A DNA stretch of 64,000 bases from an uncultured delta proteobacterium (GCA_963812015.1 CAWETI010000002.1:1024001-1088000), one strand, 5' to 3'. Counted from the first letter of the stretch, positions 22,911 through 40,834 are shown. Notes: generated by a model from the letters alone, not told the origin. Translations and numbers: made by a program.

Positions 22911-22992
22911 GGCTAACATGACCACCTGATTCCTCTCTTGTGAGTGATCTATCGCATAGACGGATCGAATCAGGTGAAGCATTTGGTTAGTC
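22911..22992 (-). mobile_element. attC-like recombination site of an integron-type gene cassette
   Basis: Minus strand GACTAAC (overlapping the stop codon) ... CACCTGATTC/GAATCAGGTG inverted repeat ... GTTAGCC. 82 bp. Confidence 0.6.
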
Positions 22993-23403: not shown

Positions 23404-23466
23404 TTCTTGTTCCTTTCGGCTAATCGTTGATTATATGCAGATGCGGACTTTTGTCCGACGTAAATC

Positions 23467-24387
23467 TTACTGGTATGAAATCACCGTCCAGGCATCAATG
23501 GCGGCAAACATCACTATCCAGAAGCTTAATTGGAGTACATACGAAAAACGCCGCCGGGGGGTGGTGAGCACCCGTTCATCCAGGGCTTTGAGGAAATTAT
23601 ACATGACCGCGCCTGACAGGGCAAAGGGGGGGAACCCCAGGAACCCCAGGAGCGGCATCTCGAACACCTTCCAGAAGTTGAACACTGGCAGGGTATAGAC
23701 CCACTTGGTGACCGCCCAGTAATTCCAGGCTTCCCACCAGAGGCCGCACATCAGGCCGGCGGTCAAAAGACACCAGGATTCCCGCCGTTCGCCCTGGGCA
23801 AAGCGATTGATGAGGGAATTCCCCCCTAAAAGCCAGCAGAAGGGGTCCAGAAGGAAGAAAAACGCCCCCCAAATCAGGGGGAAGGCGTAGCGGGGCAGGA
23901 CCAGGGGCACGATCAGCAACACCGCGCCCACCAGCAGGGACACGGGCTGCCAGGGACCCAGGTTGGCAGGCCGGGCCTTCCGGCCCTTGAAGGCCCCCAG
24001 GGCTTCGATGACCTGGGCGGTGAGGAGCACCCCGGGGAGCACCGTGGCAAAGCCCAGGGCGTAACCGCCCCAGCGAATCCACCCTACCGGGACCACCCCC
24101 ACATACCCCCAGTTTTTCAGTGCCAAGTTGAGGGCTTCAAAGATGAGCCAGACGGTGGTGGACCAGAAAAACATCTTCAGAAGTTGCCGGGGCTGAGTGA
24201 GGAGCCAGGACGAGCCCCGGAGGCGGAACAGGAGGCCGTCCAGAAAAGCGATATATGGATACCAGGCGAAGAAGTAGAGGTACTGAAGGATAATGTTATC
24301 CCCATGAATAATGCCCCAGAGGCCGACGGCCCAGCCGGCCAGGGCCAGAGCGAGCTCCAGATTGGCCAGGTATCTGAGATTGTTCAT
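23467..24387 (-). CDS. Integral membrane protein of unknown function
   Basis: Many TM helices, duplicated (W)xFE.LN..W.Y / WE.WN..W.Y motif, FEMPLLGFLGFPPF. Confidence 0.8.
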   Translation of the reverse strand: MNNLRYLANLELALALAGWAVGLWGIIHGDNIILQYLYFFAWYPYIAFLDGLLFRLRGSSWLLTQPRQLLKMFFWSTTVWLIFEALNLALKNWGYVGVVPVGWIRWGGYALGFATVLPGVLLTAQVIEALGAFKGRKARPANLGPWQPVSLLVGAVLLIVPLVLPRYAFPLIWGAFFFLLDPFCWLLGGNSLINRFAQGERRESWCLLTAGLMCGLWWEAWNYWAVTKWVYTLPVFNFWKVFEMPLLGFLGFPPFALSGAVMYNFLKALDERVLTTPRRRFSYVLQLSFWIVMFAAIDAWTVISYQ

Positions 24388-24611
24388 GGTTTTTATTGCC
24401 TCCGGTATTATGATAACCGGGCCGATAATAACTTAAAAGAGCCCGAGGCCGGGAAAATCAAGTATAGCCTGCTTTTTTTCTTGCCAAGTGGGAAAAATGC
24501 TGCTATACGGAAAAAATCCCAGGTCCATCGGCCCGCCTCGGGGGAGGTAACGATAAACATTTTCGGACCGGTACAACCGCAAACCCGGACCAGCAGGTGA
24601 AAGGAGTCCTT

Positions 24612-26156
24612 ATGATATCCTGGCTCGTGGGGGTAGTAGTCTGCGTCGCGTTGATGGCGGGGTGCGCCGGTGGTCAAAAAGCTAGCCTGGTAAAGGTGGA
24701 GCCGGCCCAGCCGGAAATGACGGCCCCCCTGGCCGATAACGGTCAAGACGATGCTACCTTGACCGAGGAGTTGAGCGCCAACCGCCTGGAAGAACTCTAT
24801 GCCAAGAGCGGCATCCCCGGTTGGGACCCCAGCCTGGAAGAGGAATTAAAGAACTGGGAACATCAAGTCAAATTCGATGTGCCCATCCAGATGAATAAGC
24901 AGGTCAGAGCCTACCTGGTCTATTTCTCCACCGAGCGCAAAGCGGTCATCACGCGCTACCTATCCCGCTCCAGCCGATATCTGCCCATGATCAAGGAAGT
25001 CTTCCAGGAGGCCGGCCTCCCGGAAGATATGGCCTATCTGGCCATGATTGAGAGCGGCTTTGACAATAAGGCCTATTCCCCGGCGGCCGCCAGCGGCATG
25101 TGGCAATTCATTAAAGGCACCGGCCTGCGCTACGGCCTGACTATCGACAGCTACGTGGATGAGCGCCGGGACCCGGAGAAGGCCACCCGGGCGGCGGCCC
25201 AATACCTGCTGGACCTCTATAAACAGTTCGGCTCCTGGTATCTGGCGGCGGCCTCCTACAACTGCGGCGAAGGCCGGGTGCAACGGGAGCTGAACCAGAG
25301 CAACCACAAGAATTTCTGGGAACTCTCCGCCAACCAATGCCTGCCCACTGAGACCAAGAATTACGTGCCCCAGATGATCGCGGCCACCATCATCGCCAAG
25401 AACCCGGAAAAATTCGGCTTCAAGAACGTACCTTATTTGCCGCCGGCCAAATATGAGAAGGTTCCGGTAAATGAGACTACCTCGCTGACCGCGGCGGCGG
25501 TGGCGGTGAACGTGCCCTCCGAGGAAGTGCAGGCGCTCAACCCGGAATTGCTCCGGGGCATCACTCCCCCGGACGCGCCGTCTTACACCCTGAATCTGCC
25601 TCCCAACAGCAAAGACCTGTTCACCAAGAACATTACCATCGCTCGCATCGAGCATCCGGCGGTGGCCTCCCACCCCATTCGGACGGCCGGGAGTTCCGGA
25701 CCTTCTTATGGCAGCGGCAGGAAATCTGTCAGCCACCAGGCCGCCGTGGCCCAAAAGTCCAGCGGCACGAGCCGGACCTCTGCCAAGTCCGCCAAAAAAT
25801 CCGCCAGCCAGATTTATGCCAAAAAAGAGACCTCGGGCCACAGCGCCCCGGTTAAGGCCAGCGCCGCCCCCGTGGTTCAGGCCTCTTTGTTCGGGACGCC
25901 GACCCTGGCCTCCAAGCACGGCGACACTAATAAGACCAAAGTGGCCCTCATAGGCGCCTCCAAGAGCAAGACCAAAACCCCGGGCGTGCAAGGCAAGAAA
26001 GCGGCCGAGACCCGGCTGGCGAAAAAGAGTGACGTCCCCTCCAAGAGCGCCACCAAAGGCAAGAAAAACAGCTCATCCAGCAAGAATTCCAAGGACAAGG
26101 ACAAGTATTCCCGGTCCAAGTCCTCGCGGACCATCATGGTTTCCGAAGCCCGGTAG
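24612..26156 (+). CDS. Membrane-bound lytic murein transglycosylase (MltD-like lipoprotein) with Lys/Ser-rich tail
   Basis: Lipobox MAGC, IESGF, GMWQFI, ASYNCGEG, ETKNYVP, LNPEL. Confidence 0.9.
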   Translation: MISWLVGVVVCVALMAGCAGGQKASLVKVEPAQPEMTAPLADNGQDDATLTEELSANRLEELYAKSGIPGWDPSLEEELKNWEHQVKFDVPIQMNKQVRAYLVYFSTERKAVITRYLSRSSRYLPMIKEVFQEAGLPEDMAYLAMIESGFDNKAYSPAAASGMWQFIKGTGLRYGLTIDSYVDERRDPEKATRAAAQYLLDLYKQFGSWYLAAASYNCGEGRVQRELNQSNHKNFWELSANQCLPTETKNYVPQMIAATIIAKNPEKFGFKNVPYLPPAKYEKVPVNETTSLTAAAVAVNVPSEEVQALNPELLRGITPPDAPSYTLNLPPNSKDLFTKNITIARIEHPAVASHPIRTAGSSGPSYGSGRKSVSHQAAVAQKSSGTSRTSAKSAKKSASQIYAKKETSGHSAPVKASAAPVVQASLFGTPTLASKHGDTNKTKVALIGASKSKTKTPGVQGKKAAETRLAKKSDVPSKSATKGKKNSSSSKNSKDKDKYSRSKSSRTIMVSEAR

Positions 26157-26188
26157 GACTACCGGGCTTCGGCCCGTCCTATCTTTTT
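26154..26188 (+). terminator. Probable terminator
   Basis: TAGGAC..CGGGC-TTCG-GCCCG-TCCTA followed by a T run. Confidence 0.55.
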
Positions 26189-26249
26189 CAAAAAAAATCT
26201 TATCCCCCCCTTGCTTTTCCCCGGAGAGTGGTTAAAATTACCCTGATAA

Positions 26250-26276
26250 TTAGCACTCACCTTGAATGAGTGCTAA
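26250..26276 (+). promoter_or_regulatory. CIRCE element (HrcA operator)
   Basis: Perfect TTAGCACTC-N9-GAGTGCTAA upstream of groES. Confidence 0.97.
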
Positions 26277-26315
26277 TAGAAGCTGATACCCTTAATTACT
26301 ACGAGGAGGTTGTAT

Positions 26316-26606
26316 ATGAAGGTCAAACCCTTGAATGACCGGGTTTTGGTCAAACGGATGGAAGAAGTGCAGATCACCAAAGGCGGTATCGTTATCCCCG
26401 ACACCGCTAAGGAAAAGCCCATTGAGGGCAAAGTCATCGCCGTCGGCCCTGGCAAAATGAGCGATGCCGGCGCCCGCATGCCCCTCCAACTGAAAGAAGG
26501 CGACCGGGTGCTGTTCGGTAAATATGCCGGCACCGAAATCAAGATGGAAGGCGAAGAATTGCTGATGATGCGGGAAGAAGACATCCTGGCCGTCATCACC
26601 GATTAG
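26316..26606 (+). CDS. groES: Co-chaperonin GroES
   Basis: [33 protein letters not shown]. Confidence 0.98.
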
Positions 26607-26636
26607 CCGCAGGACTTCCCCATCAACGCAATCTGA

Positions 26637-28322
<1,686 letters not shown>

Positions 28323-28401
28323 AACAGGGGTTAGGGGCAGGGGTTAGTGGCACGGGCTTCCAGCCTGTGGCACACCCCGTTCCCACGATTCCCTTCAAAA
28401 G

Positions 28402-28454
28402 GTAGGGCGGGCACTGCCCGCCAAACCGTAGGGGCGGACCCGCGTGTCCGCCCT
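28402..28454. repeat. Tandem GTAG-type REP-like palindromes
   Basis: GTAGGGCGGGCACTGCCCGCC and GTAGGGGCGGACCCGCGTGTCCGCCCT. The latter is repeated exactly at 29400-29426. Confidence 0.7.
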
Positions 28455-28626
28455 TCTTTTTTTCCTTCCAGAAAGAGGTCATCTTGGGGTGTCTAATCAG
28501 ATTCTAGCTTGAACTTCCCTTTAATTCCAGGTAGCCTCTCAGATATCACAAATTATTTCCATCCCATTGATAATCCATCCGTTTTTCTTTCAGAGAAACC
28601 GAAAATCGTCCTAAAGGGAGAACTTC

Positions 28627-29325
28627 ATGAACATCCTGGCCTTAAACAGCAGTCCACGGGACCACGACACCAGCAAGACCGAACTGGTGCTGCAAAAATT
28701 TCTGGAAGGGGCCAGGCGCGCCGGGGCCACCGCCGAGACCCTGTATCTGCGGAACTACAAGATCAACCACTGCCTGGGCTGCTACAGTTGCTGGCTCCAG
28801 ACCCCGGGCCGCTGCATTCAGAAGGACGACATGTCGGAAATCCTGTTTGAGCGGTATCTGGCCGCCGACCTGGTGGTGCTGGCCTCCCCCATCTATCATG
28901 CCACCCTGAACGCCCGCATGAAGCTCTTCGTGGAGCGCACCTTGCCCATGATGGACCCTTTGGGAGAGCCGCCCGAGAGCGGCGGCCACCCCCACCGCTT
29001 CGAAAAAACACCCCGGGTGGTGACCCTGAGCGTGTGCGGCTACTGGGACCAGGTTATGTTCCAGGCCCTGTCCCTCACCTGGCGTATGTGCCTGGGCGGG
29101 GACCTCATCGCCGAGATCTACCGGAATTCTGCCGAATTTCTCTCCATGCCCGAGTTTCAGCCCCAGGTGGAGCTGGTGCTGGACGCCGTGGCCCAGGCCG
29201 GGGAAGAAGTGGTGAGCCAGGGACAGGTCAGCCCGGAGACCCAGGCCTCCCTCAGCCAGGACCTGGCCCCCGCCGCCACCCTCATGCGCCTGTCCCGGGA
29301 ATTCTGGTCCCAAGGCGCCGAGTAA
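28627..29325 (+). CDS. Flavodoxin-like iron-sulfur flavoprotein (NADPH-dependent FMN reductase family)
   Basis: LNSSPR, CLGCYSCW..PGRC..KDDM, ASPIY. Confidence 0.88.
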   Translation: MNILALNSSPRDHDTSKTELVLQKFLEGARRAGATAETLYLRNYKINHCLGCYSCWLQTPGRCIQKDDMSEILFERYLAADLVVLASPIYHATLNARMKLFVERTLPMMDPLGEPPESGGHPHRFEKTPRVVTLSVCGYWDQVMFQALSLTWRMCLGGDLIAEIYRNSAEFLSMPEFQPQVELVLDAVAQAGEEVVSQGQVSPETQASLSQDLAPAATLMRLSREFWSQGAE

Positions 29326-29399
29326 TACGAGTGGGGAAGGGGGCCAGGGGCAGAAGCCCTTCCCCACACCCCATCCCCCAACCCCATATGTGAAAAAAT

Positions 29400-29426
29400 G
29401 TAGGGGCGGACCCGCGTGTCCGCCCT
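29400..29426. repeat. GTAG-type REP-like palindrome
   Basis: Identical 27-mer to 28428-28454. Confidence 0.75.
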
Positions 29427-29501
29427 TTTCTTATTTAAAGGGAGAGTGGGCCCGGCCCACCAAATAGCCAGAGGCGACCCGGCGGGTCGTCATCTCAAAG
29501 G

Positions 29502-30290
29502 TTAATGCTCTTTAAGGCTGTCCCGCAGATCGATCATCCGCTGCTGACTTACCCTGATCAGGCCCCGGCTAGGCCGGTCGAGATCGATAATCACCATAAT
29601 CACCGCGGCGATAAGGATCGACGAGATGATGGTTATGAAGAAATTGCGCAGCCCGGATAGGCCGCAGCCATAGCCTATCAGCCCGGTCGCCATCAACGCC
29701 ACGAAATAGAGAAGCACCAGGGTGATCTCGGGCACGTGGTTTTCCAGGGCGGTAAGTCTCTTGGCGTGCAGGTCAATCGTTTCGTTCAGAGACTGGAGAA
29801 ATAATCCGGTCGTGACCGCCCGCACATCCTTTTCACCCATGGCAACCCCATATGCCCAGAGCTGATTTTGCAACCGTTCCGTCTTGTCCCTCACCGCCCT
29901 CAGCTTCTTCTGGTCATTGCCTGCTGCATAAAAATCCAGTCGCACCTCGACATAGCGGCGCAACAGGTTGGAGACCTCCTGGCGGGTTGGCTCCGGCAGC
30001 AATTGAGCTCGGAGAAAGGTGGTGCCGATGGCATTGGACTCATCCAGGACCATCTGCTTTCTCGTATCATAGCGTGACATCGCCATCGCAAAGGTAAACC
30101 CCAGGAGCAGCGCCAGCAGTCCGAGCGTCGCGCCTTGAATCGTATATATCTGCGATCTCGAGTCGTCGCCGGTGTTTGACTGACTCCGGCGCCCCAGCAG
30201 AAATCCAGCCTCGGTCGCCAGGAGGAAACCTCCGACACTGGCTACCAGAATAAGCCACAGGTCCAGATCATAGAACAATTCTTCCGCCAC
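29502..30290 (-). CDS. Membrane protein (DUF4239-like)
   Basis: LGLLALLLGFTF, ESNAIGT..LRA.LL, IIDLDRP..GLIRV. Start placed at a GTG after the GAGAGGGG RBS. Confidence 0.78.
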   Translation of the reverse strand: MAEELFYDLDLWLILVASVGGFLLATEAGFLLGRRSQSNTGDDSRSQIYTIQGATLGLLALLLGFTFAMAMSRYDTRKQMVLDESNAIGTTFLRAQLLPEPTRQEVSNLLRRYVEVRLDFYAAGNDQKKLRAVRDKTERLQNQLWAYGVAMGEKDVRAVTTGLFLQSLNETIDLHAKRLTALENHVPEITLVLLYFVALMATGLIGYGCGLSGLRNFFITIISSILIAAVIMVIIDLDRPSRGLIRVSQQRMIDLRDSLKEH

Positions 30291-30591
30291 CGCGCCCCTC
30301 TCAAATGCCAAAGGTTGAAGGTCAAAGGGGGCAGTGATCCGGCCGTCATCGCCTCCCTGCTCCCGGCCCTCTACTCACCATCCCCGACTCCTAAAGAGAG
30401 TCAACCATCATGTCGTTTCTGGAAATTTCCCCTCCCTACCATAAAGTTAGCCAGAAGTCTGCATCGAGATGTCAGGGAACTGACCCAAGCAGATTATAAG
30501 ACAATGAATGTCTTAAGGGAAAGAACTTTGCCTATTCCCGAAAGCCGGGAGCAAAAGGCCACCTTCGATGTCAATATGCCGTTATGCCAAA

Positions 30592-30732
30592 TTCTCCGAT
30601 ACGCACCGCCACCACGCCGACCCATGGCGGGACGTGGTCCTCTGTCGGTGGCACACCGGCGGCTGCACACCGGAATCAAGCGTCCCACCAGCGGCGCAAA
30701 CATGGGTTGAGGCGGTTGGCCAACGGATAGAA
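30592..30732 (-). ncRNA. Candidate structured non-coding RNA
   Basis: Nested complementary segments in an intergenic region, with a G-U pair favouring the minus strand and a terminator-like hairpin downstream. Confidence 0.35.
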
Positions 30733-30873
30733 GCGTAGCAAAGTCGATATGTTGTGGATTATGAACCGCATTTTTTTCAAATTTCGATAAAAATGACAAT
30801 TCACAAGGGTGCTAGTTGCCCTTAAAAGGCAGAAAAAGATGCGAAAAGGGGGGGATAACGCCCCGTATTTTGC

Positions 30874-31266
30874 TCAAATGAGGGAGTTTACGCGGGTCGC
30901 CACTTCAATCAAGTTCAAATCAGGGTCCCGGAAATACACGGATTCCAGCTCCCCCGCGGCCCCCGTCCGCCGCACCGGGCCCAGGATGATCTTGACCCCA
31001 AAACGCTGCAAATGGGCCAGGAGGTTTGCCATAGAGGTGTTAACCAGGAAGCATAAATCAGCAGAGCCCGGGGTGGGTCGATGGGCCTTGGGTTCGATTT
31101 CCCGGCCGGCTTGGTGCAGGTTGATCCTTTGGGAGCCCCAGGCCAGGGCCTGGCGGTTTCCCCCGAAGGTCACCGGTTCCATTCCCAGGACCGTGGCATA
31201 GAACCGGCGGGTGGCGTCAAGGTCTTTGACGGTCAGCACCAAATGATCGAGACAGACAACTTTCAT
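30874..31266 (-). CDS. VOC/glyoxalase family protein
   Basis: LDHLVLTV, INLH, PTPGSADLCF, GPVRRTGA, YFRDPDLNLIE. Confidence 0.92.
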   Translation of the reverse strand: MKVVCLDHLVLTVKDLDATRRFYATVLGMEPVTFGGNRQALAWGSQRINLHQAGREIEPKAHRPTPGSADLCFLVNTSMANLLAHLQRFGVKIILGPVRRTGAAGELESVYFRDPDLNLIEVATRVNSLI

Positions 31267-31324
31267 GGAATGCCGTTCTGCCTATATGCTCAAGCGGAAG
31301 CCGGGAGGAAGTGATTTCCCTGAA

Positions 31325-31350
31325 AGGGCGACCCGGCGGGTCACCCCTAC
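31325..31350. repeat. GTAG-type REP-like palindrome (minus orientation)
   Basis: Reverse complement is GTAGGGGTGACCCGCCGGGTCGCCCT. Confidence 0.65.
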
Positions 31351-31425
31351 TTATGCGGGTTGGGAGGGGGACGTGGGGGGAGGGCAGGGCCGTTGGCCCT
31401 GGCCTTCACCCCACAATCATTTCCC

Positions 31426-32268
31426 TCACCCCTCCAGCACGATCCCGGCGTAGCCCACGAAGCTGTCGCCGGGCATGATATCGTAGCTGGTGTAGTAGTC
31501 CGCAAGCACAGCCTTGTGGGCCCCTTCGGCGGTGGCGGCGGCCACCGCGGCCGCCGCCCCCCCGGCGCTGCAGGCGCTCTGGTCTTGGGCGGCGGTCTTG
31601 AGCATGCCGGGGCCGTCCAGTTTCAGGGCCTGGTCGATGAATTTCTTATCGTTGACTTCTTTCACCCACTTCAGCGCCTCGGGGCCGTAGCCTTTGGGGG
31701 CGAAGCCGTAGTTGGGGCCATAGTGGGAAAGGTCGGTGGACCCGAAGACCAGGATACTGACCTTCAACTCCTTAGCCACGGCGGCCACGGCCTTCCCCAA
31801 CTCCAGCGCCGCGTCCGAGTGGGGGGAGCGCAGGGCCAGGACTTTGGCCTGGGGGAAGAAATATTTGACGAAGGGGATTTGCACTTCGATGGTGTTGTCG
31901 CCGGGGTATTCTTCCCGGAGGCTGATGCGTTTAGCCAGGGGCGCATAAAATTCCGTGGCCAGGGGCAGGTCGCCCAGGGGGGTTTCCCAGGCGTCGTCGG
32001 CTACCAGGAGTGGCGGGGAGTCGCCTCCCAGATGGCCGCCGAAAACACACACCACCTGCGGTTGGACGATTTTAGCCGCCAGATAAAAAACCCGGGCCGC
32101 GGCCTTGCCGGAAAAATACCAGCCGGCATGGGGCACGATGCCGCCATAGACTTTGGTCCCTGAGGGCAGGGGCGTGGTCCCGGCGATGAATTGGTCGATT
32201 TCCGCCTTACAGGCGCTGGGGCTGGCGGGATACCACCCCACGGGCAACATCCGTTCCCGGGTTCGCAT
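31426..32268 (-). CDS. AmmeMemoRadiSam system protein B (MEMO1 family)
   Basis: GWYP, PHAGWYFSG, WETPLG, IEVQIPF, STDLSHYG, SFVGYAG. Confidence 0.9.
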   Translation of the reverse strand: MRTRERMLPVGWYPASPSACKAEIDQFIAGTTPLPSGTKVYGGIVPHAGWYFSGKAAARVFYLAAKIVQPQVVCVFGGHLGGDSPPLLVADDAWETPLGDLPLATEFYAPLAKRISLREEYPGDNTIEVQIPFVKYFFPQAKVLALRSPHSDAALELGKAVAAVAKELKVSILVFGSTDLSHYGPNYGFAPKGYGPEALKWVKEVNDKKFIDQALKLDGPGMLKTAAQDQSACSAGGAAAAVAAATAEGAHKAVLADYYTSYDIMPGDSFVGYAGIVLEG

Positions 32269-32534
32269 GGTCGCCTCCTTTTTTGAGGACCGCTCATCCA
32301 GGTTGGCGACGCCCCTGGGTGGGGAGCGCCAACCGGCCGGCCAAGCCTTTGAATTACGCCGGATTTTAGCTGTATTAAAGCCGAGGAGGTTATCTTTGTC
32401 AAGGGATGGGTGTCAACGTGAATCGAAGAGGAAATCCCCCTAAAGCCCCCTGTGCCAAAGGGGGACTTTTCATTTTACCCCCTTTTCTCAAGGGGGAGCG
32501 TTGCCAGGCGTGGCCAAAGACCGGCCTTGAAAAA

Positions 32535-33104
32535 TTAATGGCTGTCGGCCAATTGGCGGATTCTTTCCACCAGGCCCAATTGGACGAACAGGGTGGACAC
32601 CGCCCCGGGGACCAGGTGCTCCCAGGGTTGGTCTTGGACAATTTTTTGGCGAATCAGGCTGGAGGTGAGCCCCTTTTCGGCCTTGGTCTTGCGCCACAGG
32701 ACCTCGACGTGCAGCCCCAATGATTCAAACAGCTTCAACTTCCTCTCCCCCCAGGCGTCATAGATGGTGAGATAAAAGACGGCCTTAAGGGGCACGTAAT
32801 ACTGATAGAGTTCGGGAAAATTGATGGGGAGCGGCACCAGGGAAAATTCCCGGTGGTGGATACCTTGTTCCAACAGGGTCTCTTTGAGGATGACATAACG
32901 TTCGTAATAGGTCAGGGGGTTGTCGGCTGGACTGCTGCGATGCGGGTCGGCCTGGTCGTATTTGGTCAGGGTGGGGTCGGGGTTGGTGATGGCCACGATG
33001 AGGTGGCGGCAGCGGGCTTTGGCCGCCAGGATATACTTCACATGGTCATGGTGGAGCACCTGGAACCGGCCGTGGGCCACCCCGGTTTCAGCTAACGTGG
33101 TCAT
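32535..33104 (-). CDS. Nucleotidyltransferase, NMNAT/NadM-like (HxGH superfamily)
   Basis: HGRFQVLHHDH, ITN, NPLTYYER, SSLIR, WEHLVP. Confidence 0.85.
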   Translation of the reverse strand: MTTLAETGVAHGRFQVLHHDHVKYILAAKARCRHLIVAITNPDPTLTKYDQADPHRSSPADNPLTYYERYVILKETLLEQGIHHREFSLVPLPINFPELYQYYVPLKAVFYLTIYDAWGERKLKLFESLGLHVEVLWRKTKAEKGLTSSLIRQKIVQDQPWEHLVPGAVSTLFVQLGLVERIRQLADSH

Positions 33105-33152
33105 GTCTCGCAAGGTCTCCGATTGTCGGCGGACGGCGCCCCATCTTCCGCC

Positions 33153-34478
33153 TTACTTGATGGCCAGGGGCTTATACCGGCCGGGGAAGAAGGGTTGATC
33201 CCAGGGAGAGTCCATGAGGCCGTAAAGCTTGCCCCGATCGAGAAAATTAAGCACCAGATACATGAGCTCCCGGCCTCTGACGGTGCCCAGGGCCCCGGCG
33301 GCGCAACTGACTTCGTCAAAGCGTTTCACGGCATCCCGGCGGGTATAGCGGCCGATCATGCACAGGGGCACGCTCTCGCCGGAATGGATCATCCGGCCGG
33401 CGCTGTTGGTGGAATGGTCCGCGGTGATTACCAGGAGCACGTCGGGGGAGGACACGATGTCCTCCAGGGCGAAGGCAAAGGCCTTATCCAGGTCCTCCAA
33501 CACGGCGCGTTTGATCCGGGGGTTTTTGGTGTGGGCCGCTTCATCGGGGGCCTTGGTATGGACGTAGATGAAATCGTAATCGGTGGCCGACCTGGCCAGC
33601 TCCAAGCGTTGCCGCAGGTCATCACCGGGCCGGTCGGTGTCCTGCACCGGGTGCCGGGTCATGCCCAGGTACTGGCTCAAGCCTTTATAGAGCGCCCCGG
33701 AAGCGATGGCCAGGGAGCGCAGACCCCACTTTTCCGGAAAGGGCTGCACCGGTTTCCATCGACCGGCGCGCTGGGTGCCGACGGCATTGATGGGGGGGAG
33801 TCCAGCCTTACGTCTCCGGTCGTTAATCGGGTGCCGACTGAGGCGATGGTAACACCAGGTCAAATAGAGGTTCAGTGCCGCCGCGGTCTTGCGGGCCCGG
33901 AGATCATTGTGGTGGGTCGCACAAGGCAAGACCTCCATGAGCGGACGCCCTTCATAAATCGGGTTGGAGTCAGTGATTTCCGGGGCCACCTCCTCCCCCT
34001 TCACCAGCACGATCCCCCCAATCCCCTTGGTAGGAATAAACTCCACCTCCAGCCCTTCGTGCCGGAAATGCCTGATCTCTTCTTGCAACGTCAAACAGGT
34101 CTCAGGGTCGAGCTTGGGGTCTTCCACCTCCAGAACTAAATGGCCCTGGTCCTCCCGGACCGCAAAAATTCTGGATAGAAGGGCGATTTCCCCCGGACCG
34201 ACCGGGATATTTTCCCCCAAAGCTTCGATATAGCCGCGGCCCGGAAAATCCTTGAGGTCGTAGCCGAACAGGAGAAAGTGCGCGATTTCGCTGGGCAGGG
34301 TGATGCCCTGAAGCCAGGGGTGTAAGAGGCCGTTCATCCCCAGGGCGGCCAGGCGATCCAGGTTGGGAGTGCGGGCCTGCTGCAACGGCGTCTTGCCGCC
34401 AAAGGCCGCGATGCCTCGGTCACCTAACCCGTCAAGTATCACGAAGATACATCTCATGGCTGAAGTTGCTTCATTCAT
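33153..34478 (-). CDS. ApgM-like cofactor-independent phosphoglycerate mutase / alkaline phosphatase superfamily metalloenzyme
   Basis: DGLGDR, TPLQ.A.TPNLD, PSEIAH, HTKAPDEAAH, TADHST, HSGESVP. Confidence 0.88.
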   Translation of the reverse strand: MNEATSAMRCIFVILDGLGDRGIAAFGGKTPLQQARTPNLDRLAALGMNGLLHPWLQGITLPSEIAHFLLFGYDLKDFPGRGYIEALGENIPVGPGEIALLSRIFAVREDQGHLVLEVEDPKLDPETCLTLQEEIRHFRHEGLEVEFIPTKGIGGIVLVKGEEVAPEITDSNPIYEGRPLMEVLPCATHHNDLRARKTAAALNLYLTWCYHRLSRHPINDRRRKAGLPPINAVGTQRAGRWKPVQPFPEKWGLRSLAIASGALYKGLSQYLGMTRHPVQDTDRPGDDLRQRLELARSATDYDFIYVHTKAPDEAAHTKNPRIKRAVLEDLDKAFAFALEDIVSSPDVLLVITADHSTNSAGRMIHSGESVPLCMIGRYTRRDAVKRFDEVSCAAGALGTVRGRELMYLVLNFLDRGKLYGLMDSPWDQPFFPGRYKPLAIK

Positions 34479-34493
34479 AAAGGCACGGTAACT

Positions 34494-35543
34494 TTAAGGC
34501 TCCAACCTGATCCTTCCCGGGGCTTGGCCGGTCACCTCGCCGATGAGCGCCGCCTTGATACCGTTGAGCTTTAGGCAATCCATAAGGACCGCCGCCCGGT
34601 CCGCGGCTACGGCGAGGAGCAGTCCGCCGTTGGTCTGGGCGTCACTGCAGAGGTCCACCAGCAGCGGATCGATCCCTGTTGCCACCGTAAGGCTCTTGGT
34701 GCAAAAGTTACGGTTGGCGAAACTGCCGGCCGGCACCAACCCCATGGCGGCATATTCCCGGGCCGCGGACAGGATCGGCACTTGATGGACTACAAAAGTA
34801 AGCTCGACGTTGCTGGCCACCGCCATTTCCAGGGCGTGACCCAGGAGGCCGAAGCCGGTGATGTCCGTGATGGCATGCACCGCCAAGTGGTCCAGGCACG
34901 CCTCGGGCAGCCGGTTCAAGGTCGTCATGACCTGGATGGCCTCGGCCTCCGCCTCCGGGGAGGCCAGGCGCCCTTTCACCGCGGTGGCGATAACACCGGT
35001 CCCCAGGGGCTTGGTAAGGATCAGCCGGTCGCCCACCCGGGCCCCGCCGTTGGTAAACACCCGTTCCGGGTGGACCACCCCGGTTACGGAGAGGCCGTAT
35101 TTCAACTCGGTATCGTCGACGCTATGGCCACCCAGGAGCAGGGCCCCGGCCTCATGAATCTTATCCAGGCCGCCGGCCAAAATAGCCTGGAGCACCTCTT
35201 TGGGCACGGTCTGGCAGGGGTAGCAGACAATGTTGAGGGCCGTTAAAGGCCGGCCGCCCATGGCGTATACGTCGCTTAAGGCATTGGCCGCGGCAATCTG
35301 GCCAAAAGTGTAGGGATCGTTGACCACGGGGGTAAAAAAGTCCACCGTCTGGATCAACGCGATCTCGGGTGTCAGGCGATACACGCCCGCGTCATCCGCC
35401 GTCTCCATGCCCACCAGCAGGTTGGGATGCGACTGGACGGGCAGAGTCTGCAAAATTTCCTCCAAGATCCCGGGAGGAATTTTAGCAGCTCAACCGGCGG
35501 CGCGGACCTGCTCCATCAAAGGCTGATAGCTTTTTTCGGTCAT
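34494..35543 (-). CDS. selD: Selenide, water dikinase SelD, a selenoprotein (Sec18)
   Basis: MTEKSYQPLMEQVRAAG-TGA-AAKIPPG is in frame with the track ORF. Motifs DDAGV, TVDFF, ANALSDVYAMGG, GGHS, TDITGFGLLGH, DAQTNGGLL. Confidence 0.96.
35448..35488 (-). promoter_or_regulatory. SECIS hairpin of selD
   Basis: CUGC-UAAAAU-UCCUCC ... GGAGGA-AAUUUU-GCAG stem immediately after the UGA (35490-35492), with a G-starting apical loop. Confidence 0.75.
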
Positions 35544-35640
35544 GGTTCTCTCTCGGGTCATGGCTTCAAGAAGCCCGTTACTTTCTAGTATACCAGGTTT
35601 ACCCCTGCCTCCGCACCAGTCTGATGGCCCCTGGCCGGCC

Positions 35641-36444
35641 TCAGGACCGCGCCAGGGACCTCGATCCTTGGTTCAGAAATTCCCGCACCATTGCTAAGGT
35701 TTGCAGGAGCGCCGCTTCTTCCCGCAGTTCCAGCACCCACCAGGTGCACAGGGGCAATTTTTGCAAAAGCAAGAGACGCTCCCAGAGGTCGGACAGATTT
35801 TGGGGGGGCAGATGGCCGCTGGTACGCTCTTCATGATAGATGTGGGCGTTTAAAAACCGCTCGGGATGGGGCATGACAAAGTCAGCGACGCGAAACAGGC
35901 GACTCTCCACCGAGGGGCTGACTTGTGCATGGCCGATGTCGATGGTGCCCCAGACGTTGGTGGTCCGGAGGAGCTTTTCGAAGAGTTCCGGACGGCTGGT
36001 CCAACCCAGGGCCAGGTTTTCCAGGCAAAGGCGCACCCCCAGATGGTTGGCGAAGCTGACTAGGTCCGCCAACCCTTTCACGGTCCGCTCCCAGCAGAGG
36101 TCCAGGGTGTGGCTCAACCCCAAGCCGATATGGATGGTGAGGACGCGGCCCCCCACTTTGGAGACCAGACGGCAGACCCGGCGAAATACTTGCTTGGCCT
36201 TCTGGGCCTCGGCCGGATTTTCATTGCCCAGGTCCATGTTGTTGAACGGGCAATGATAGCGAACTTCCAAAGGATGCAGTAGGGAGATGGCCTTGACGTA
36301 AGACGATTCAGCCGCCGGACTGCCGGGCAAATCTTCCGGAAAAAAGCTCCAATCCACCCCTTCAAACCCGTGGGTCAGGGCGAATTCCTTCAAGGCTGCC
36401 ACGTCCGGCAGGAAATTACAGCAAGCAAGTCGCACGCTATTCAC
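35641..36444 (-). CDS. Sugar phosphate isomerase/epimerase family TIM-barrel protein
   Basis: HCPF..DL, H, LEN, DIGHA, H, H.P, LE metal-binding pattern. Confidence 0.85.
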   Translation of the reverse strand: MNSVRLACCNFLPDVAALKEFALTHGFEGVDWSFFPEDLPGSPAAESSYVKAISLLHPLEVRYHCPFNNMDLGNENPAEAQKAKQVFRRVCRLVSKVGGRVLTIHIGLGLSHTLDLCWERTVKGLADLVSFANHLGVRLCLENLALGWTSRPELFEKLLRTTNVWGTIDIGHAQVSPSVESRLFRVADFVMPHPERFLNAHIYHEERTSGHLPPQNLSDLWERLLLLQKLPLCTWWVLELREEAALLQTLAMVREFLNQGSRSLARS

Positions 36445-36632
36445 TTATGGTTTTTTCCCTGGAGCTTGGCGCACCGCAGTCTGCCGAGAAGCCGCGGGTT
36501 TTCGCAGCATGCCTCCGGCGTTCAGGTGAACCCTGGCAGGGGTGGGGCTGAGATAGGCGGGAAAGGTGGGAAGGTCTAAAACCGGATCTGGCGGGAAGGG
36601 AGCATGAGATCAGGCATACACTCTGCTGCTTC

Positions 36633-36756
36633 TCCCCGGGTGACCCCGCCTGCCCAAGCCGTTATGTCCTCGAGAGCCTTGCCAAGGCCTCTCGGAGCCA
36701 GGGTTCAGGATTTGGCGTAACTAGGAAACATCGGCCGAAGCACCCGGGTCACCTCC
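36633..36756 (-). ncRNA. Candidate structured leader RNA / riboswitch-like element
   Basis: About 120-nt rod with alternative terminal pairings (CCCGGGUG/CACCCGGG versus GGUGACCC/GGGUCACC), just downstream of a promoter. Confidence 0.45.
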
Positions 36757-36775
36757 CTAAATAAGATTATTCGCA

Positions 36776-36805
36776 ATTATAAGGCCATTTGGCCGAAAAA
36801 ATCAA
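36776..36805 (-). promoter_or_regulatory. Candidate sigma70 promoter
   Basis: Minus strand TTGATT-N18-TATAAT. Confidence 0.55.
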
Positions 36806-36880
36806 CGACCATTTGCCGTCGGCCCCAAAGCCGGTGGTGAGAGGCTCTTGGACCGGTCAAGTTGAAGCCGGCGACGACTT

Positions 36881-37351
36881 TTAGGACCGGAGGGTCGCGG
36901 TCAGACCGGCCGGAACCAGCAGCAGATCCAGGGCCTCGAGGATGCCCGGAACCACCACGTCCGCGGCCATCAGCGCCTCCACCGCCAGTCCTTCCGCCTG
37001 GAGCAGGGCGATCCCCAGGATCGCCTCCTGAAGCATGAGCCGGTCATTTCTGCCGTTGCCCACGGCCACCGTGTGGTCGCGCCCCAGCCGCCGCACGTAT
37101 TCGGCTTTGGCGTGGGCCTGATCTCCGGAAGGAATGACGACAAGATCAGCGGGCAGGTGGGCCACTTGGTCCCTGACCGTCCCGAAAGTGTCGGCCGTCA
37201 AGATGTGGATCGTCAGGCGGGGAGCCAGAACCTCCAGCTTCGGATGGACGCCCTGGATGAGCCGGCCCTGACAGGCAAGGGTGCCGTTATAGTCCAGAAC
37301 CAGGTGCGCCAGCCGCAAGTCCTTGAAACCAGGTATCGTTATGCCGATCAT
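36881..37351 (-). CDS. HAD-family hydrolase (soluble P-type ATPase-like)
   Basis: DYNGTLA, LTADTFG, K, VGNGRND. Confidence 0.88.
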   Translation of the reverse strand: MIGITIPGFKDLRLAHLVLDYNGTLACQGRLIQGVHPKLEVLAPRLTIHILTADTFGTVRDQVAHLPADLVVIPSGDQAHAKAEYVRRLGRDHTVAVGNGRNDRLMLQEAILGIALLQAEGLAVEALMAADVVVPGILEALDLLLVPAGLTATLRS

Positions 37352-37422
37352 CTTATCTCCGCCCAGCGCAATGTGGTGAGATGCGCCGGACCTTGCAATT
37401 CTTGCAGCTCAAGCTTAGGGCT

Positions 37423-38283
37423 TCAAAATCCTATTCTATCAAGCAACAGCACCGCGGTGGCAAAAAACAGGCAATAGCAGCCGAAGAGTGGCCAGCGGCC
37501 CTGTTCCAGCCAGCGGGAAAGCCATTTGAGGGCCAGAAAGCCTGAAACACAACTCAAGACCATGCCCAGCAGGCTCGGATAAAAGAGGGCGACGGAGCTG
37601 GCCCCCTGAGACCAGGCAAAGGCATGGGCCTTCAGCAGCCTCAGCACTTCGCGCAGGATTACCGGCGGTGTCAGGACCACAGCCAGGGCAAAACTGAATT
37701 CCTCGAGCCGGTCTTTGGCCACCCCCATCACCAGTCCGGTGGATATCGTGGCGCCGGAACGGGAAAACCCCCGGAAGGGAAGGCAGACGCCCTGCACCGC
37801 ACCGATCCAGGAAGACTCTTTTATCCCCAGGGAGGACCTCTGGGTGGGGCGCGGTTTTCGAAGTCCGGCATAGATGATGAATAAACCCACCGCCGCCAGG
37901 GCCGCGGCAATCAGGGGCAGGTTACCAAAAAGCAGCTCCACTTCGGCATGGGGCACGTTCCTGAACACAAACTTTTCGATCACATATTTCAGGGTCAATC
38001 CCACCAAGCCGGTAAAGGCCGTAGCCACTACGACCAGCTTGGCAAAATGTCGCACCCCGGTCCCTGAGGAAAAGTAGTTGATTTTCCAGGAGTTCCAGAA
38101 ATAAGCGATGACTGCGAACATCGTACCGGTGTGGAGCATGACCAACAGCAGCGTCATCTCGGGGGTGGTGGGGTCAAGGCCCAGCAATTTGGCCGCCACG
38201 ATGACATGGGCGGAACTGGAGACCGGCAGCAGCTCGGCCGCTCCCTGGACCATGGCCAGAATGACAATTTGGACGAGGGACAT
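37423..38283 (-). CDS. uppP: Undecaprenyl-diphosphate phosphatase
   Basis: QGAAELLPVSSSAH, GFSRSGATI, FSF. Confidence 0.9.
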   Translation of the reverse strand: MSLVQIVILAMVQGAAELLPVSSSAHVIVAAKLLGLDPTTPEMTLLLVMLHTGTMFAVIAYFWNSWKINYFSSGTGVRHFAKLVVVATAFTGLVGLTLKYVIEKFVFRNVPHAEVELLFGNLPLIAAALAAVGLFIIYAGLRKPRPTQRSSLGIKESSWIGAVQGVCLPFRGFSRSGATISTGLVMGVAKDRLEEFSFALAVVLTPPVILREVLRLLKAHAFAWSQGASSVALFYPSLLGMVLSCVSGFLALKWLSRWLEQGRWPLFGCYCLFFATAVLLLDRIGF

Positions 38284-38495
38284 TAAAGCGCACCTTACTC
38301 TTTCGGTTATGAGGCGAGGCGGGCACAGAAGCATGCCTTCCCGTAATTTCCTGCCGACGACTGGCAGTTCCAGGCCGGATGGCCTGCACTATTATAAGTC
38401 CTGGGAGGCAATTTGCCACCCTCTGAGGCGGGTGACCGGGTGAATTTTGGGACCGCGGCAAGGCATAAGGCCTTTGAACCGGGCTTAAAGGATGC

Positions 38496-39878
38496 CTAGC
38501 GCGTCAGCCAGTGGCGATTGCGCACGGTGAGGCAGGCGTAAGGGTAGATCCACTGAAGCAGGAAAAAGGCGTAGTAGGCATAGATGATGCCATAGACGAA
38601 CTCCAGATCCCGCTCCAGCCAGAGATAATAGAGCAGGTTGACCAGGGAGACCACCCCCAGGGCGGCCAGGAGTTTGAGCAGAATCAGGGGGTAGACTGCC
38701 ACCGAAGCCACGAGCAGCCCCAAGAAGAGCAGCGTCAGGGGGTATTCCAGCTGGGCCAGGAAGAATTCCACGATGGGCAGCAGGCGATAGTTATCCCGGT
38801 ACCGGGTAAACAGGTAGCCCAATTGGACGCAGGACTCCCGCACGTTGCCCCGCTCCCAGCGCAGGTACATCCGGCACACGCCTTGATAAGTCTCGGGGAC
38901 CAGGGTATAGACCACCGCGGTCCGCTGATAATACGTATAATGACCGCCCCGGAGGATAAAATTGGTCAGGGCCCGGTCTTCGCTGTGGTGGCAGGGGGCT
39001 CCCAGGAAGGTTTGCCGCCGCCAGGCCGTGAGGTGCGGCATCAGGGCGGTGCGCCGATAGGCCGACAGCGACCCGGGGGTGCAGATCACCGCCCGGTACA
39101 GGGACTGAGAGGCCCGGAGATAATCCAGGTTCACGAAGCGCACGCCTTGCATCTTGCCCGTGAGGCTGCCGTGGCGGTTGTGGACCTTGACGTTGCCGGC
39201 CGTGGCGCCGATCCGGCCGTCGTGCATCAGGGGGGCCACCAGGTGGCGCAGGGCATTTTCGGCGATGATGCTGTCGGAATCGATGGTGACGAAGATCTCC
39301 CCCCGGCCCCGGGTGAATCCGGCGTAAAGCCCCTCTTTTTTCCCCCGGTTGGCGCTGAAGCGAAGAGGCGTCAGCAGGTGGGGGTAGCGCCGCCGCGCCC
39401 GCTGGATATAGAACCAGGTGTCATCCCGGGAGCCGTCGTCGATGCAGATGATTTCCAACCGGTCAGCCGGATAGTCGCAGGTGGCCACGGCATGGATGGC
39501 CTGCTCCACCATGGCTCCTTCATTATAGGCGGGGATGATGACGGTGAGGCTGGGCCAGGGCCCGTCCGTCAGAGGGTATGGCCGGTAGCAGGCCCAGAGG
39601 ACGGTGCGGAAAAGCTGAAACAGGAGCATCACCAAGGCGTAGCCGGCTGCCAGGGCGGGCAGGCAAGAGGTGTAGGTCTGGCGGCGCAAGAGCTCCGCAT
39701 AGGCCGTAAAGGAGCCGAGCTTGACGGCCATGACCAGGAAGACCAAAAGCAGGACCGGCACCATGACCTTCAACCCCGGGTCCAGCCATAGGATGCAGGC
39801 CGTGCGCTGACGAGGGGTGGGGGAGGCCGCCGGGTGGTCCATCGGTGGCCAGGACAGGGTCGGAGTAGCGTTGGACAT
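38496..39878 (-). CDS. Processive GT2 glycosyltransferase (hyaluronan synthase/NodC-like)
   Basis: IPAYNE, DDGS, GKK, DSD, EDR.LT, YLRW motifs and TM helices. Confidence 0.88.
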   Translation of the reverse strand: MSNATPTLSWPPMDHPAASPTPRQRTACILWLDPGLKVMVPVLLLVFLVMAVKLGSFTAYAELLRRQTYTSCLPALAAGYALVMLLFQLFRTVLWACYRPYPLTDGPWPSLTVIIPAYNEGAMVEQAIHAVATCDYPADRLEIICIDDGSRDDTWFYIQRARRRYPHLLTPLRFSANRGKKEGLYAGFTRGRGEIFVTIDSDSIIAENALRHLVAPLMHDGRIGATAGNVKVHNRHGSLTGKMQGVRFVNLDYLRASQSLYRAVICTPGSLSAYRRTALMPHLTAWRRQTFLGAPCHHSEDRALTNFILRGGHYTYYQRTAVVYTLVPETYQGVCRMYLRWERGNVRESCVQLGYLFTRYRDNYRLLPIVEFFLAQLEYPLTLLFLGLLVASVAVYPLILLKLLAALGVVSLVNLLYYLWLERDLEFVYGIIYAYYAFFLLQWIYPYACLTVRNRHWLTR

Positions 39879-40021
39879 GAGACGGGTCGAGCCTCCTCAA
39901 GGGCTAGAGCAAAAAGCCGGACAATTGGCCAGCAAAAGCCGCCCAGGCTTTGGTGGGGCGGCTGTCCCTGGCCGCCATCCTTCCCCTCTCAAAGCGTCGG
40001 CAGGCGGGCCCATCCGGCATT

Positions 40022-40834
40022 TCAGGATGGTGAGGTGACGCCTTGGTCCGGGGGGGCGTCGTCCGGCAGCTTGTCCGCCGACCTGGCTTCCCGGGCCAGG
40101 CCTCGAAATAAACCCATCAGGGCGGCCCGGGTCTTTTCGGCATAGGCGTCAGTCAGTTCATAATCCCAGCCGTGCTGACGGAAAATCTGGCGGACCTGGG
40201 CCCGGTAGTTCAAGGGGTCCATCATCACTTCCCCGGCATAGGGGGCGATGAGCTCATGCAGCCGAGCCGGATTCATGGGCAGCATCGGCGCGATGAAGAC
40301 CCAGGGGGTGAGACCCGCCTGGCGCAACTTCCTTAAGGTGGCGATCCGGGCGTCGATGGGCGGGGCCTGGGGCTCCAGCACCTTGCGCACCCGGTCGTCG
40401 TCCGTGGGGATGGACAGCCCGACGCTCACCTCGGGGATGGCGGTGAGGAGATCCAGGTCCCGGGTGACCAGGGGTGAGCGCGTCAAGATGCTGATGCCCC
40501 AGCCGAATTCGGCCAGGATTTTGAGACACCGGCGAGTCAAGCGGTATCTGAGTTCCACCGGTTGATAGGGATCGCAGACGCTGGACAGGAAGGCCCGTCC
40601 CCGGATTTTTTTCCGCGCCAGCTCATGGGAGAGGACTGCGGCCAGGTTGACCTTGACCTCCACAAAGCTGCCCCAGGGGGCCCCGGCATGGTGGCGGGCA
40701 TAACGACGCATGAAGGCCGCATAACAATACCGGCAGCCATGGCCGCAGCCCAGGTAAGGGTTGATGACATAATCCACCCCCGGAATCCGGGACCTGACCA
40801 GGACGGTTTTAGCGGTGATTTCTGTGAGGTCCAT
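40022..40834 (-). CDS. Radical SAM protein (spore photoproduct lyase-like family)
   Basis: NPYLGCGHGCRYCYA, VKVN, DPYQPVE, LTRS, LEP. Confidence 0.88.
   Translation of the reverse strand: MDLTEITAKTVLVRSRIPGVDYVINPYLGCGHGCRYCYAAFMRRYARHHAGAPWGSFVEVKVNLAAVLSHELARKKIRGRAFLSSVCDPYQPVELRYRLTRRCLKILAEFGWGISILTRSPLVTRDLDLLTAIPEVSVGLSIPTDDDRVRKVLEPQAPPIDARIATLRKLRQAGLTPWVFIAPMLPMNPARLHELIAPYAGEVMMDPLNYRAQVRQIFRQHGWDYELTDAYAEKTRAALMGLFRGLAREARSADKLPDDAPPDQGVTSPS

Follow-up and report, generated by a model that had tools for sequence, protein, structure and literature searches.

To our knowledge, four routes are known that use the selenophosphate made by SelD (selenide, water dikinase), those to selenocysteine (Sec), selenouridine, the Mo-hydroxylase cofactor and selenoneine; the last of these, which is also the latest, was reportedly discovered through genes that adjoin selD. 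CDP-alcohol phosphotransferases move the distal phospho-group of a nucleotide-linked donor onto an alcohol, and the transferase PhpG is paired with a nucleotidyltransferase, PhpF. PhpG belongs to the ApgM family, in which it represents an analogous transfer from CMP-5'-phosphonoformate (NCBIfam NF038358). Genes for HGD-D and its activase (a double-cubane cluster protein and its reductase) are among the neighbors of selenium genes in the STRING table of PMC5322559 and in a figure legend of PMC10418091. Here we analyze a 64,000 nucleotide stretch of the genome of an uncultured delta proteobacterium (GCA_963812015.1, CAWETI010000002.1:1024001–1088000; “the window” below, with positions counted from its first nucleotide), in which selD lies among three genes that encode a TIM-barrel protein, an ApgM-like protein and a protein resembling nicotinamide mononucleotide adenylyltransferase (NMNAT). 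We refer to these three genes as the trio. The best single reading, which we hold with middling confidence, is that the trio is a selenium-linked accessory pathway; it is preferred because the trio was inserted around a resident selD gene and because it recurs, in rearranged form, with selD, YedE, YedF, DUF3343 and YqeC genes in other genomes.

The four genes all lie on the minus strand, in the order xylose-isomerase-like TIM-barrel gene (35641–36444; PF01261), selD (34494–35543; TIGR00476), ApgM-like gene of the alkaline-phosphatase superfamily (33153–34478; PF01676 and PF10143) and NMNAT-like nucleotidyltransferase gene (32535–33113; PF01467), with spacers of 97, 15 and 48 bp. The last spacer is 39 bp if the NMNAT-like gene starts at its TTG codon and 48 bp with the ATG at 33104, which is the likely start because homologs begin there. 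An earlier note, made from the sequence of the window, had described four co-oriented genes with these gaps, and the coordinates and profile matches agree with that description.

The window selD encodes an ordinary selenophosphate synthetase (TIGR00476, 354.4 bits against a cut-off of 125; PF00586, 91.3 bits; PF02769, 78.8 bits) that contains Sec. Calling of open reading frames (ORFs) gives the gene as 34494–35465, which is shortened because of an in-frame TGA; the true frame runs through this single TGA (35490–35492, codon 18) to an ATG at 35543. With the TGA read as Sec the N-terminus is MTEKSYQPLMEQVRAAG-U-AAKIPPG, with the motif AAG-U-AAK. SelD proteins usually have a glycine-rich loop in which Sec or Cys precedes Lys, and this loop has a catalytic role. 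A SECIS-like hairpin begins at the UGA (35440–35495, minus strand; minimum free energy −25.8 kcal/mol, z −3.38); none of 200 shuffled sequences folds equally well, and the hairpin matches no Rfam family. The remaining Sec decoding parts are all present in the genome, which is 3.96 Mb in size and 99.86% complete: selA (608 bits) is on the contig of the window, at a distance of about 400 kb, selB on contig C3 (368 bits) and the tRNA-Sec gene at C4:18351–18448. By tblastn and a family search of the genome, the window copy is its only selD. Since it is the sole copy and the Sec machinery is encoded elsewhere in the genome, the window selD is the housekeeping enzyme of the selenocysteine trait. No match to SelU/MnmH (TIGR03167), YqeB (TIGR03309) or YqeC (TIGR03172) was found in this genome. 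The earlier note had pointed out the lack of selA, selB, selC and selU near selD when it proposed a possible new selenium pathway; the lack is real locally, but it says nothing about a separate trait because the full Sec machinery is present elsewhere in the genome. Across the sample of the phylum that is described below, nearly all of the SelD genes listed carry one in-frame TGA, and Sec-containing SelD is therefore the rule there. A few SelD genes without a TGA sit in long open frames (746 amino acids in genome G430 and 421 in G215), and these may be fusions.

The surroundings of selD in relatives indicate how the present arrangement arose. In 40 loci of relatives, searched with the window proteins, there are seven of the same genus that lack the trio and have selD beside a small HAD-like gene, a Memo-like gene or both. 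In three of these (L167, L168 and L196) the HAD-like gene, selD and Memo are all present, separated by about 110 and 80 bp. The HAD-like spacer is also retained in L188, where Memo is about 1.3 kb from selD, and a single flank is seen in each of L166, L190 and L197. The HAD-like gene is thus directly upstream of selD, and the Memo-like gene directly behind it, in same-genus genomes without the trio. In the window the same two genes are found outside the trio, the HAD-like gene at 36881–37351 and the Memo-like gene (AmmeMemoRadiSam system protein B; TIGR04336, 213 bits) at 31426–32268, both on the minus strand, so that the order is HAD-like, TIM, selD, ApgM-like, NMNAT-like, Memo. Locus L045 has this same order, as does L046 as far as its contig end, which cuts it. 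A quick maximum-likelihood tree built from 59 SelD sequences places the window SelD in an 11-row clade (support 97) together with the native-locus SelDs of the genus. These native loci and this grouping show that the resident selD stayed put and that the three genes were inserted on both of its sides.

An extended −10 element, TGnTATACT, lies at 35587–35595 on the minus strand, about 45–55 nt upstream of the selD ATG. In an alignment of six selD upstream regions, which comprised two TIM–selD spacers (window and L045) and four native HAD–selD spacers, the T, G, TATA and final T of TGnTATA(C/G)T are invariant in all six, before a conserved ATGACCGA start. A consensus scan for promoters did not report this element because the scan demands a −35 hexamer. 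Its conservation supports the suggestion of the earlier note that selD has its own promoter. Since the motif is kept between the TIM-barrel gene and selD, the TIM-barrel gene was inserted upstream of that promoter, and the ApgM-like and NMNAT-like pair, lying only 15 bp behind selD, most likely joined the selD transcript. Fifteen wetland metatranscriptome runs contain 5–12% of the sampled words, and in the four runs that were compared with the locus, only short contigs of 58–372 nt matched, which at 95–99% identity touch all four genes; these contigs are from related strains and may include DNA carry-over. No contig from the four runs bridges any of the gene junctions by ≥31 letters. In two loci of relatives a phage-type integrase gene and a Mutator-family transposase gene lie beside the trio (L050:4407–5012 and L057:2049–3245), which marks the trio as mobile and fits its patchy distribution.

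The three inserted genes appear to be extra paralogs and not housekeeping enzymes, because the genome has two better ApgM genes and a true nadD gene and because the NMNAT-like gene is patchily distributed. The ApgM-like protein barely passes the model for the broad subfamily TIGR00306 (323.2 bits versus a cut-off of 320) and is below the equivalog cut-offs of NF003104 (283 versus 489) and NF003160 (197 versus 468). Of the three ApgM paralogs of the genome it diverges most, scoring 323 bits against 504.8 and 417.6 for the other two, and no gpmI gene was found above the cut-off in the genome. Residues D16, S63, D312, D354, H355 and H365 are common to it and both paralogs; we take the S63 column to be the nucleophilic serine and the Asp and His columns to bind metal. 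The protein has full-length similarity to the archaeal-type phosphoglycerate mutase ApgM of known structure (PDB 2zkt, 199 bits) and also aligns over its full length with the PhpG model NF038358, at 186.9 bits versus a cut-off of 545. It carries a conserved, family-specific C-terminal tail that is not found in the paralogs. From these features it is predicted to be a divergent but catalytically intact phosphotransferase of the ApgM family. Two apparent Arg-to-Leu differences from the paralogs were dropped from consideration and give no inference, because the alignment at that point is uncertain by one column.

The NMNAT-like protein is similarly far from the enzyme whose name it bears. It is just over the cut-off for PF01467 (22.6 versus 21) and misses the two curated NMNAT models widely (45.6 versus 181.2 and 58.6 versus 127; archaeal type, TIGR01527 / PRK01153). 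Its profile nevertheless matches the archaeal NMNAT 1f9a at 59 bits in a full-length alignment, and a structural model (pLDDT 91.2) has as its best Foldseek matches the archaeal NMNATs 1m8f and 4yp7 (TM score 0.71–0.72 by query and 0.81 by target), with PPAT next. Its motif is LHHDH, so that HxDH stands in place of (H/T)xGH, and the aspartate, D23, is shared by all 26 family members aligned; the variant HHDH motif that the earlier note had read is indeed present in the translation. Relative to archaeal NMNATs there is also a 12-residue insertion after strand 2. The true nadD lies elsewhere in the genome (188 bits). The NMNAT-like gene is found in 18 of 61 relatives (in two of them as only a weak partial match) and, within the genus, in six of 17 other species.

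The TIM-barrel protein matches PF01261 at 65.6 bits versus a cut-off of 31.1. Its AlphaFold model (pLDDT 92.7) has L-xylulose-5-phosphate 3-epimerase UlaE as best solved match (TM score 0.73, 17% identity), so by predicted structure it most resembles the fold of a sugar or sugar-phosphate epimerase or isomerase. Similarity to CbiR is weak (29.8 bits versus 105). A sequence search of the PDB gave no match, and in the protein atlas only generic “sugar phosphate isomerase/epimerase” clusters were found.

Beyond the genus, the trio genes recur near selenium genes in several different arrangements. Among 15 genome loci around an NMNAT-like gene, the ApgM-like gene is present in 11, the TIM-barrel gene in 12 and selD in seven. 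A metagenome scan added 80 NMNAT-like loci, many of them short, and 14 of these contain selD. The neighbors, as identified by Pfam and NCBIfam models, include a selenium-type YedE, TusA/YedF-like genes, the “Se/S carrier” DUF3343, a ribokinase-like gene (PF01256), and HGD-D, BcrAD and CCG/4Fe-4S genes. The YedE of the clusters matches TIGR04112 at 474.7 bits, and the thiosulfate transporter models give just 42 and 27 bits. At least six gene orders are seen. The window, L045 and L046 share the order TIM, selD, ApgM-like, NMNAT-like. In a second order (L051, L053, L061, L070 and L072) the genes are TIM, YedE, TusA, ApgM-like, NMNAT-like, SelD, DUF3343 and ribokinase-like, and in a third (L055, L069 and L077) an operon of SelD, YedE, TusA, DUF3343, ribokinase-like and TIM genes is divergent from the NMNAT-like gene. 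In a sister family this third type of operon ends in the TIM-barrel gene even when the NMNAT-like gene is elsewhere (L192, L194 and L201). The fourth order, from the distant relative L250 (L248 is similar), is XdhC, YqeC, MobA-like, YedF, SelD, methyltransferase, NMNAT-like, MORN, LysR. In the fifth (L210 and L213), a YedE, TusA, DUF3343, ribokinase-like, SelD group is followed by a metal ABC transporter and then by YedF, DAC-domain, TIM, CDP-alcohol phosphotransferase and NMNAT-like genes; the YedF of these loci is full length (TIGR03527, 221.9 bits). In the sixth (L209), YedF and SelD-like genes are found with a CDP-alcohol phosphotransferase fused to the NMNAT-like protein. On a quick tree of SelD, adjacency of the SelD and NMNAT-like genes needs at least six changes across well-supported branches. 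Two genomes, G010 and G020, have two selD genes each, one in the cluster and one elsewhere.

The fusion just mentioned is a 423 amino acid ORF of genome G407 (L209:7543–8814, minus strand) in which hmmscan places the CDP-alcohol phosphotransferase at residues 38–213 and the NMNAT-like domain at 237–415. The fusion sits beside the L209 SelD-like gene, of which only the N-terminal AIRS domain is recognized, and beside the YedF-like gene. Long open frames had suggested three further fusions, ApgM::NMNAT in G070 and G178 and CDP-alcohol transferase::NMNAT in G210, and these were dropped: a check against ORF lists, which covered G070 and G210, found adjacent genes in different frames in both, so the G407 fusion is the only one supported. 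HGD-D and BcrAD genes also adjoin the module in relatives. In the genome of the window itself, outside the window, a cluster at C3:1330249–1334316 contains a TusA-like gene, a BcrAD-type activase gene, an HGD-D gene of the double-cubane type and a long rhodanese-domain gene, and homologs of these genes adjoin the TIM and NMNAT-like module in relatives. In one metagenomic sub-lineage (L080, L084, L090, L095 and L129) a gene for a PHP-domain phosphoesterase lies about 2.1–2.3 kb upstream of the NMNAT-like gene and is divergent from the ApgM-like and NMNAT-like pair.

The frequency of this linkage was assessed in an even sample of the phylum, comprising 401 genomes. The NMNAT-like gene was found at E ≤ 1e-20 in 57 of them, and all 57 contexts, reaching at most about 9.5 kb from the gene in each direction, were searched by tblastn. 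SelD, YedE, YedF or DUF3343 is near the gene in nine of the 57 genomes, which belong to five families (G000, G020 and G030 in family f1; G037 in f2; G407 in f98; G282 and G361 in f81; G276 and G187 in f55). The linkage is found with each kind of partner: a selenium marker is nearby in three of the 23 genomes in which the partner is ApgM-like, in three of the 25 in which it is a CDP-alcohol phosphotransferase, and in three of the nine that have neither. As a control we used positions 20001–39500 of the first contig of the same genomes, which gave 29 stretches (542,393 bases); eleven first contigs were too short. At the same threshold SelD is near the NMNAT-like gene in seven of 29 genomes and in none of the 29 control stretches, where there was one YedF-like match and one AIRS-family match at 31% identity. 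Although the enrichment of SelD near the NMNAT-like gene is real, its basis is five families of kin, and it is suggestive, not conclusive.

The choice of partner gene says something about the logic of the module. Among the 80 metagenome loci the ApgM-like gene is present in 21 and a CDP-alcohol phosphotransferase gene in 32, and never are both in one locus. The partner is mostly just upstream of the NMNAT-like gene, and the TIM-barrel gene precedes partners of either type. The best matches of the CDP-alcohol phosphotransferase are archaetidylinositol-phosphate, PIP and DIPP synthases, at 94 bits versus 180 and below every equivalog cut-off. Because the partners alternate and both enzyme types can take nucleotide-linked donors, we infer by analogy that the trio may be an activation and transfer module: the substrate would first receive an activating nucleotide, and a transferase of interchangeable type would then pass on the activated group. 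In such a scheme the TIM-barrel protein would prepare the substrate, the NMNAT-like enzyme would activate the phosphorylated substrate with a nucleotide, and the ApgM-like enzyme, replaced by a CDP-alcohol phosphotransferase in other lineages, would transfer the activated group.

There are three possible reasons for such a module to sit with SelD: it could make a selenium product, it could have a helper role in selenium supply, or the two could share no chemistry. If the trio works with selenium, the selenium would most likely come as selenophosphate from SelD. A more specific idea, that the NMNAT-like enzyme and its transferase partner represent a further SelD-dependent use of selenium beside the four named above, we consider unlikely, but two routes can be envisaged for it. 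Selenophosphate might be activated with a nucleotide and the selenophosphoryl group passed to an alcohol acceptor, or selenophosphate might attack a nucleotide-activated sugar or polyol phosphate; by either route, these anaerobic relatives of sulfate reducers would make a small molecule or lipid head group that contains selenium.

Several observations weigh against a selenium-linked role for the trio and have to be set beside the insertion and the recurrence. In 48 of the 57 genomes with an NMNAT-like gene there is no selenium marker within about 9.5 kb on either side, and outside families f1 and f2 the phylum sample has about 18 ApgM-like/NMNAT-like pairs, none of them close to selD. In G001, of the same genus as the window, the TIM-barrel, ApgM-like and NMNAT-like genes are on one contig and selD on another, and in G178 (96% complete) the pair is present and selD was not found at E ≤ 1e-40. 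The window itself is without YedE, YedF and DUF3343, and YedE, DUF3343 and the ribokinase-like gene are missing by tblastn from its whole genome. Co-occurrence gives no help, since nearly every genome of the phylum has selD, 368 of the 401 sampled overall and 53 of the 57 that carry the NMNAT-like gene; the phylogenetic profiling against selD that the earlier note proposed was therefore uninformative, and its companion proposal, an analysis of neighborhoods, gave a mixed answer, with selenium genes adjoining in nine genomes from five families and no linkage in the rest. The linked genomes are kin and the control has just 29 stretches, so the statistics are modest. No obvious enzyme for forming a C–Se or O–P–Se bond was identified in the module, and the rhodanese and TusA neighbors would fit sulfur equally well. 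The 48 unlinked genomes make a serious rival of a small-molecule pathway that is independent of selenium, in which a phospho-sugar, polyol or glycerate is activated with a nucleotide and transferred, to give a compatible solute, lipid head group or envelope component, and in which the nearness of selD reflects neighborhood drift or shared regulation. Its commonest partner enzyme, the CDP-alcohol phosphotransferase, has its (distant, 94 bit) matches in synthases of known solute and lipid pathways; trehalose-phosphatase and trehalose-phosphate synthase genes directly follow the selenium cluster in L072 (9376–11756), and also in L070; the module of one sub-lineage lies among NagZ-like, MraY-like and GT1 genes; and the integrase and transposase genes of L050 and L057 flank the trio. 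Drift does not so easily account for a linkage to selenium markers that recurs in five families and at least six gene orders, for insertion on both sides of a resident selD with the pair 15 bp behind it, or for the difference between seven and none in the 29 genomes and their controls. We therefore treat selenium independence as a real, if doubtful, possibility that is clearly less probable than a selenium-linked role.

Two other explanations appear to us to have less in their favor. That the module handles sulfur, or either chalcogen, in persulfide or thiosulfate trafficking with rhodanese, TusA and YeeE-type transporters, SelD being one neighbor of several, agrees with the rhodanese-domain genes that come after the NMNAT-like gene in many loci without selD (such as L048, L063, L065, L083, L085, L097 and L117), with the frequency of TusA-like genes in the module loci, and with a passage of PMC5322559 according to which DUF3343 is not specific to selenium. 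It is improbable, however, in view of the transporter, as the YedE of the clusters fits the selenium-type model and scores only 42 and 27 bits with the thiosulfate models, and in view of the full-length YedF, SelD and YqeC, which are selenium markers; even the long rhodanese protein has as its best match a rhodanese/DsbD selenoprotein model, in its N-terminal part, with 98 bits that fall well short of the cut-off. Least probable of all, and by our estimate very improbable, is that an ordinary housekeeping phosphoglycerate mutase, NMN adenylyltransferase and sugar-phosphate epimerase lie beside selD by chance. Automatic database names (“nicotinamide mononucleotide adenylyltransferase” and “sugar phosphate isomerase/epimerase”) say as much, and the ApgM-like protein is just over the TIGR00306 cut-off (323.2 versus 320) and keeps its catalytic columns, but the genome has the two better ApgM paralogs (505 and 418 bits) and the true nadD (188 bits), the NMNAT models are missed by wide margins (45.6 versus 181 and 58.6 versus 127), the glycine of HxGH is invariantly Asp, and 18 of 61 relatives is a patchy distribution for a housekeeping gene. 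We return therefore to the trio as a selenium-linked accessory pathway. The earlier note had proposed a selenium pathway for these genes, and part of that proposal is in line with the evidence, in that the genes look like extra paralogs, were inserted around selD and recur with selenium genes; the argument from missing sel genes is lost, and the 48 unlinked genomes of 57 stand against it.

The genes that flank the four add a few details. The HAD-like protein encoded upstream of the trio has 156 amino acids and a DYNGT ... GNGRND pattern; it gives only weak HAD and P-type ATPase matches, with no family above its cut-off. Its gene recurs in relatives adjoining selD, the NMNAT-like gene or the end of a selenium operon (L056, L073, L077, L193, L202 and L211), and its product, perhaps a phosphatase, may be a member of the same network. 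Between the HAD-like gene and the TIM-barrel gene a consensus scan reported a terminator-like hairpin with a T-run (36803–36821, minus strand), behind the HAD-like gene, and a promoter-like site, TTGATT-18-TATAAT, with 10 of 12 matches (36776–36805, minus strand), upstream of the TIM-barrel gene. Such sites occur at about chance frequency (12 terminator-like sites found versus 7.9 expected, and two promoter-like sites versus 1.4 expected), so both are weak candidates. An Rfam scan of 31000–37600 gave nothing near gathering scores. Further upstream of the HAD-like gene, at 37423–40834 on the minus strand, are genes for a BacA/UppP undecaprenyl-diphosphatase, a NodC/PgaC-like family-2 glycosyltransferase and a PA0069-type radical SAM protein; the glycosyltransferase scores 166 bits, which is below the cut-off, and its gene is kept in the closest relative, L045.

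The trio thus resembles the selenoneine genes in being an enzyme set that recurs beside selD, but it is a second, unrelated set, which is also found with selenium transport and carrier genes and here is probably part of the selD transcription unit. A functional link would point to a selenium-containing metabolite or a selenium-handling step in widespread anaerobic bacteria of sediments and wetlands, and to a role for a large family (865 relatives) that is mis-annotated as NMN adenylyltransferase. Without a functional link, the family would still mark an activate-then-transfer pathway with interchangeable transferases. No link of ApgM-like, NMNAT-like or TIM-barrel genes to selD appears in the portions consulted of PMC5322559, the selenoneine preprint (10.1101/2022.04.13.486033), PMC9312934, PMC10418091 and PMC2276186; the supplementary tables of the first two may list such families.

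Among described systems, the neighborhood of YedE, YedF, DUF3343 and SelD (Lin et al. 2015; PMC5322559) resembles the clusters of the relatives in gene content. The same markers are present in both, as far as the main text of that paper describes them, and its STRING table includes HGD-D subunit and activase genes like those in the relatives' clusters; no mention of TIM-barrel, ApgM-like, NMNAT-like or ribokinase-like genes was found in that main text. The sen cluster for selenoneine (SenA, SenB and SenC), in the part of the preprint that describes it, likewise has a SelD-type gene clustered with small-molecule enzymes, and its logic, in which selenophosphate attacks a nucleotide-activated donor, is like that of one of the routes considered above. 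Unlike the sen cluster, the window has a housekeeping, Sec-containing selD in place of a dedicated SenC, and none of the enzymes is homologous; the best match to SenB (TIGR04348) in the genome has 46.4 bits versus a cut-off of 300, and no EgtB-like (SenA) gene is among the 15 neighbors scanned.

The NMNAT-like and ApgM-like proteins of the window have full-length sequence and fold similarity to archaeal NMNAT (1f9a and 1ej2) and ApgM (2zkt), but they differ from these in the HxDH motif, the 12-residue insertion and the scores below the equivalog cut-offs, and in being extra copies beside the true enzymes. The PhpF and PhpG pair of phosphinothricin synthesis (NF038358, CMP-5'-phosphonoformate--3-phosphoglycerate phosphonoformyl transferase) also involves transfer of a nucleotide-activated phosph(on)ate by a member of the ApgM family; the ApgM-like protein of the window differs in falling far short of the PhpG model (186.9 versus 545), and no phosphonate genes were seen with it. 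In the IPCT/DIPPS and Kennedy-type pairs a nucleotidyltransferase likewise works with a CDP-alcohol phosphotransferase, a combination that is found in 32 of the 80 metagenome loci and is fused in one genome; unlike those pairs, the window combines a nucleotidyltransferase of archaeal-NMNAT fold with a soluble, ApgM-like partner.

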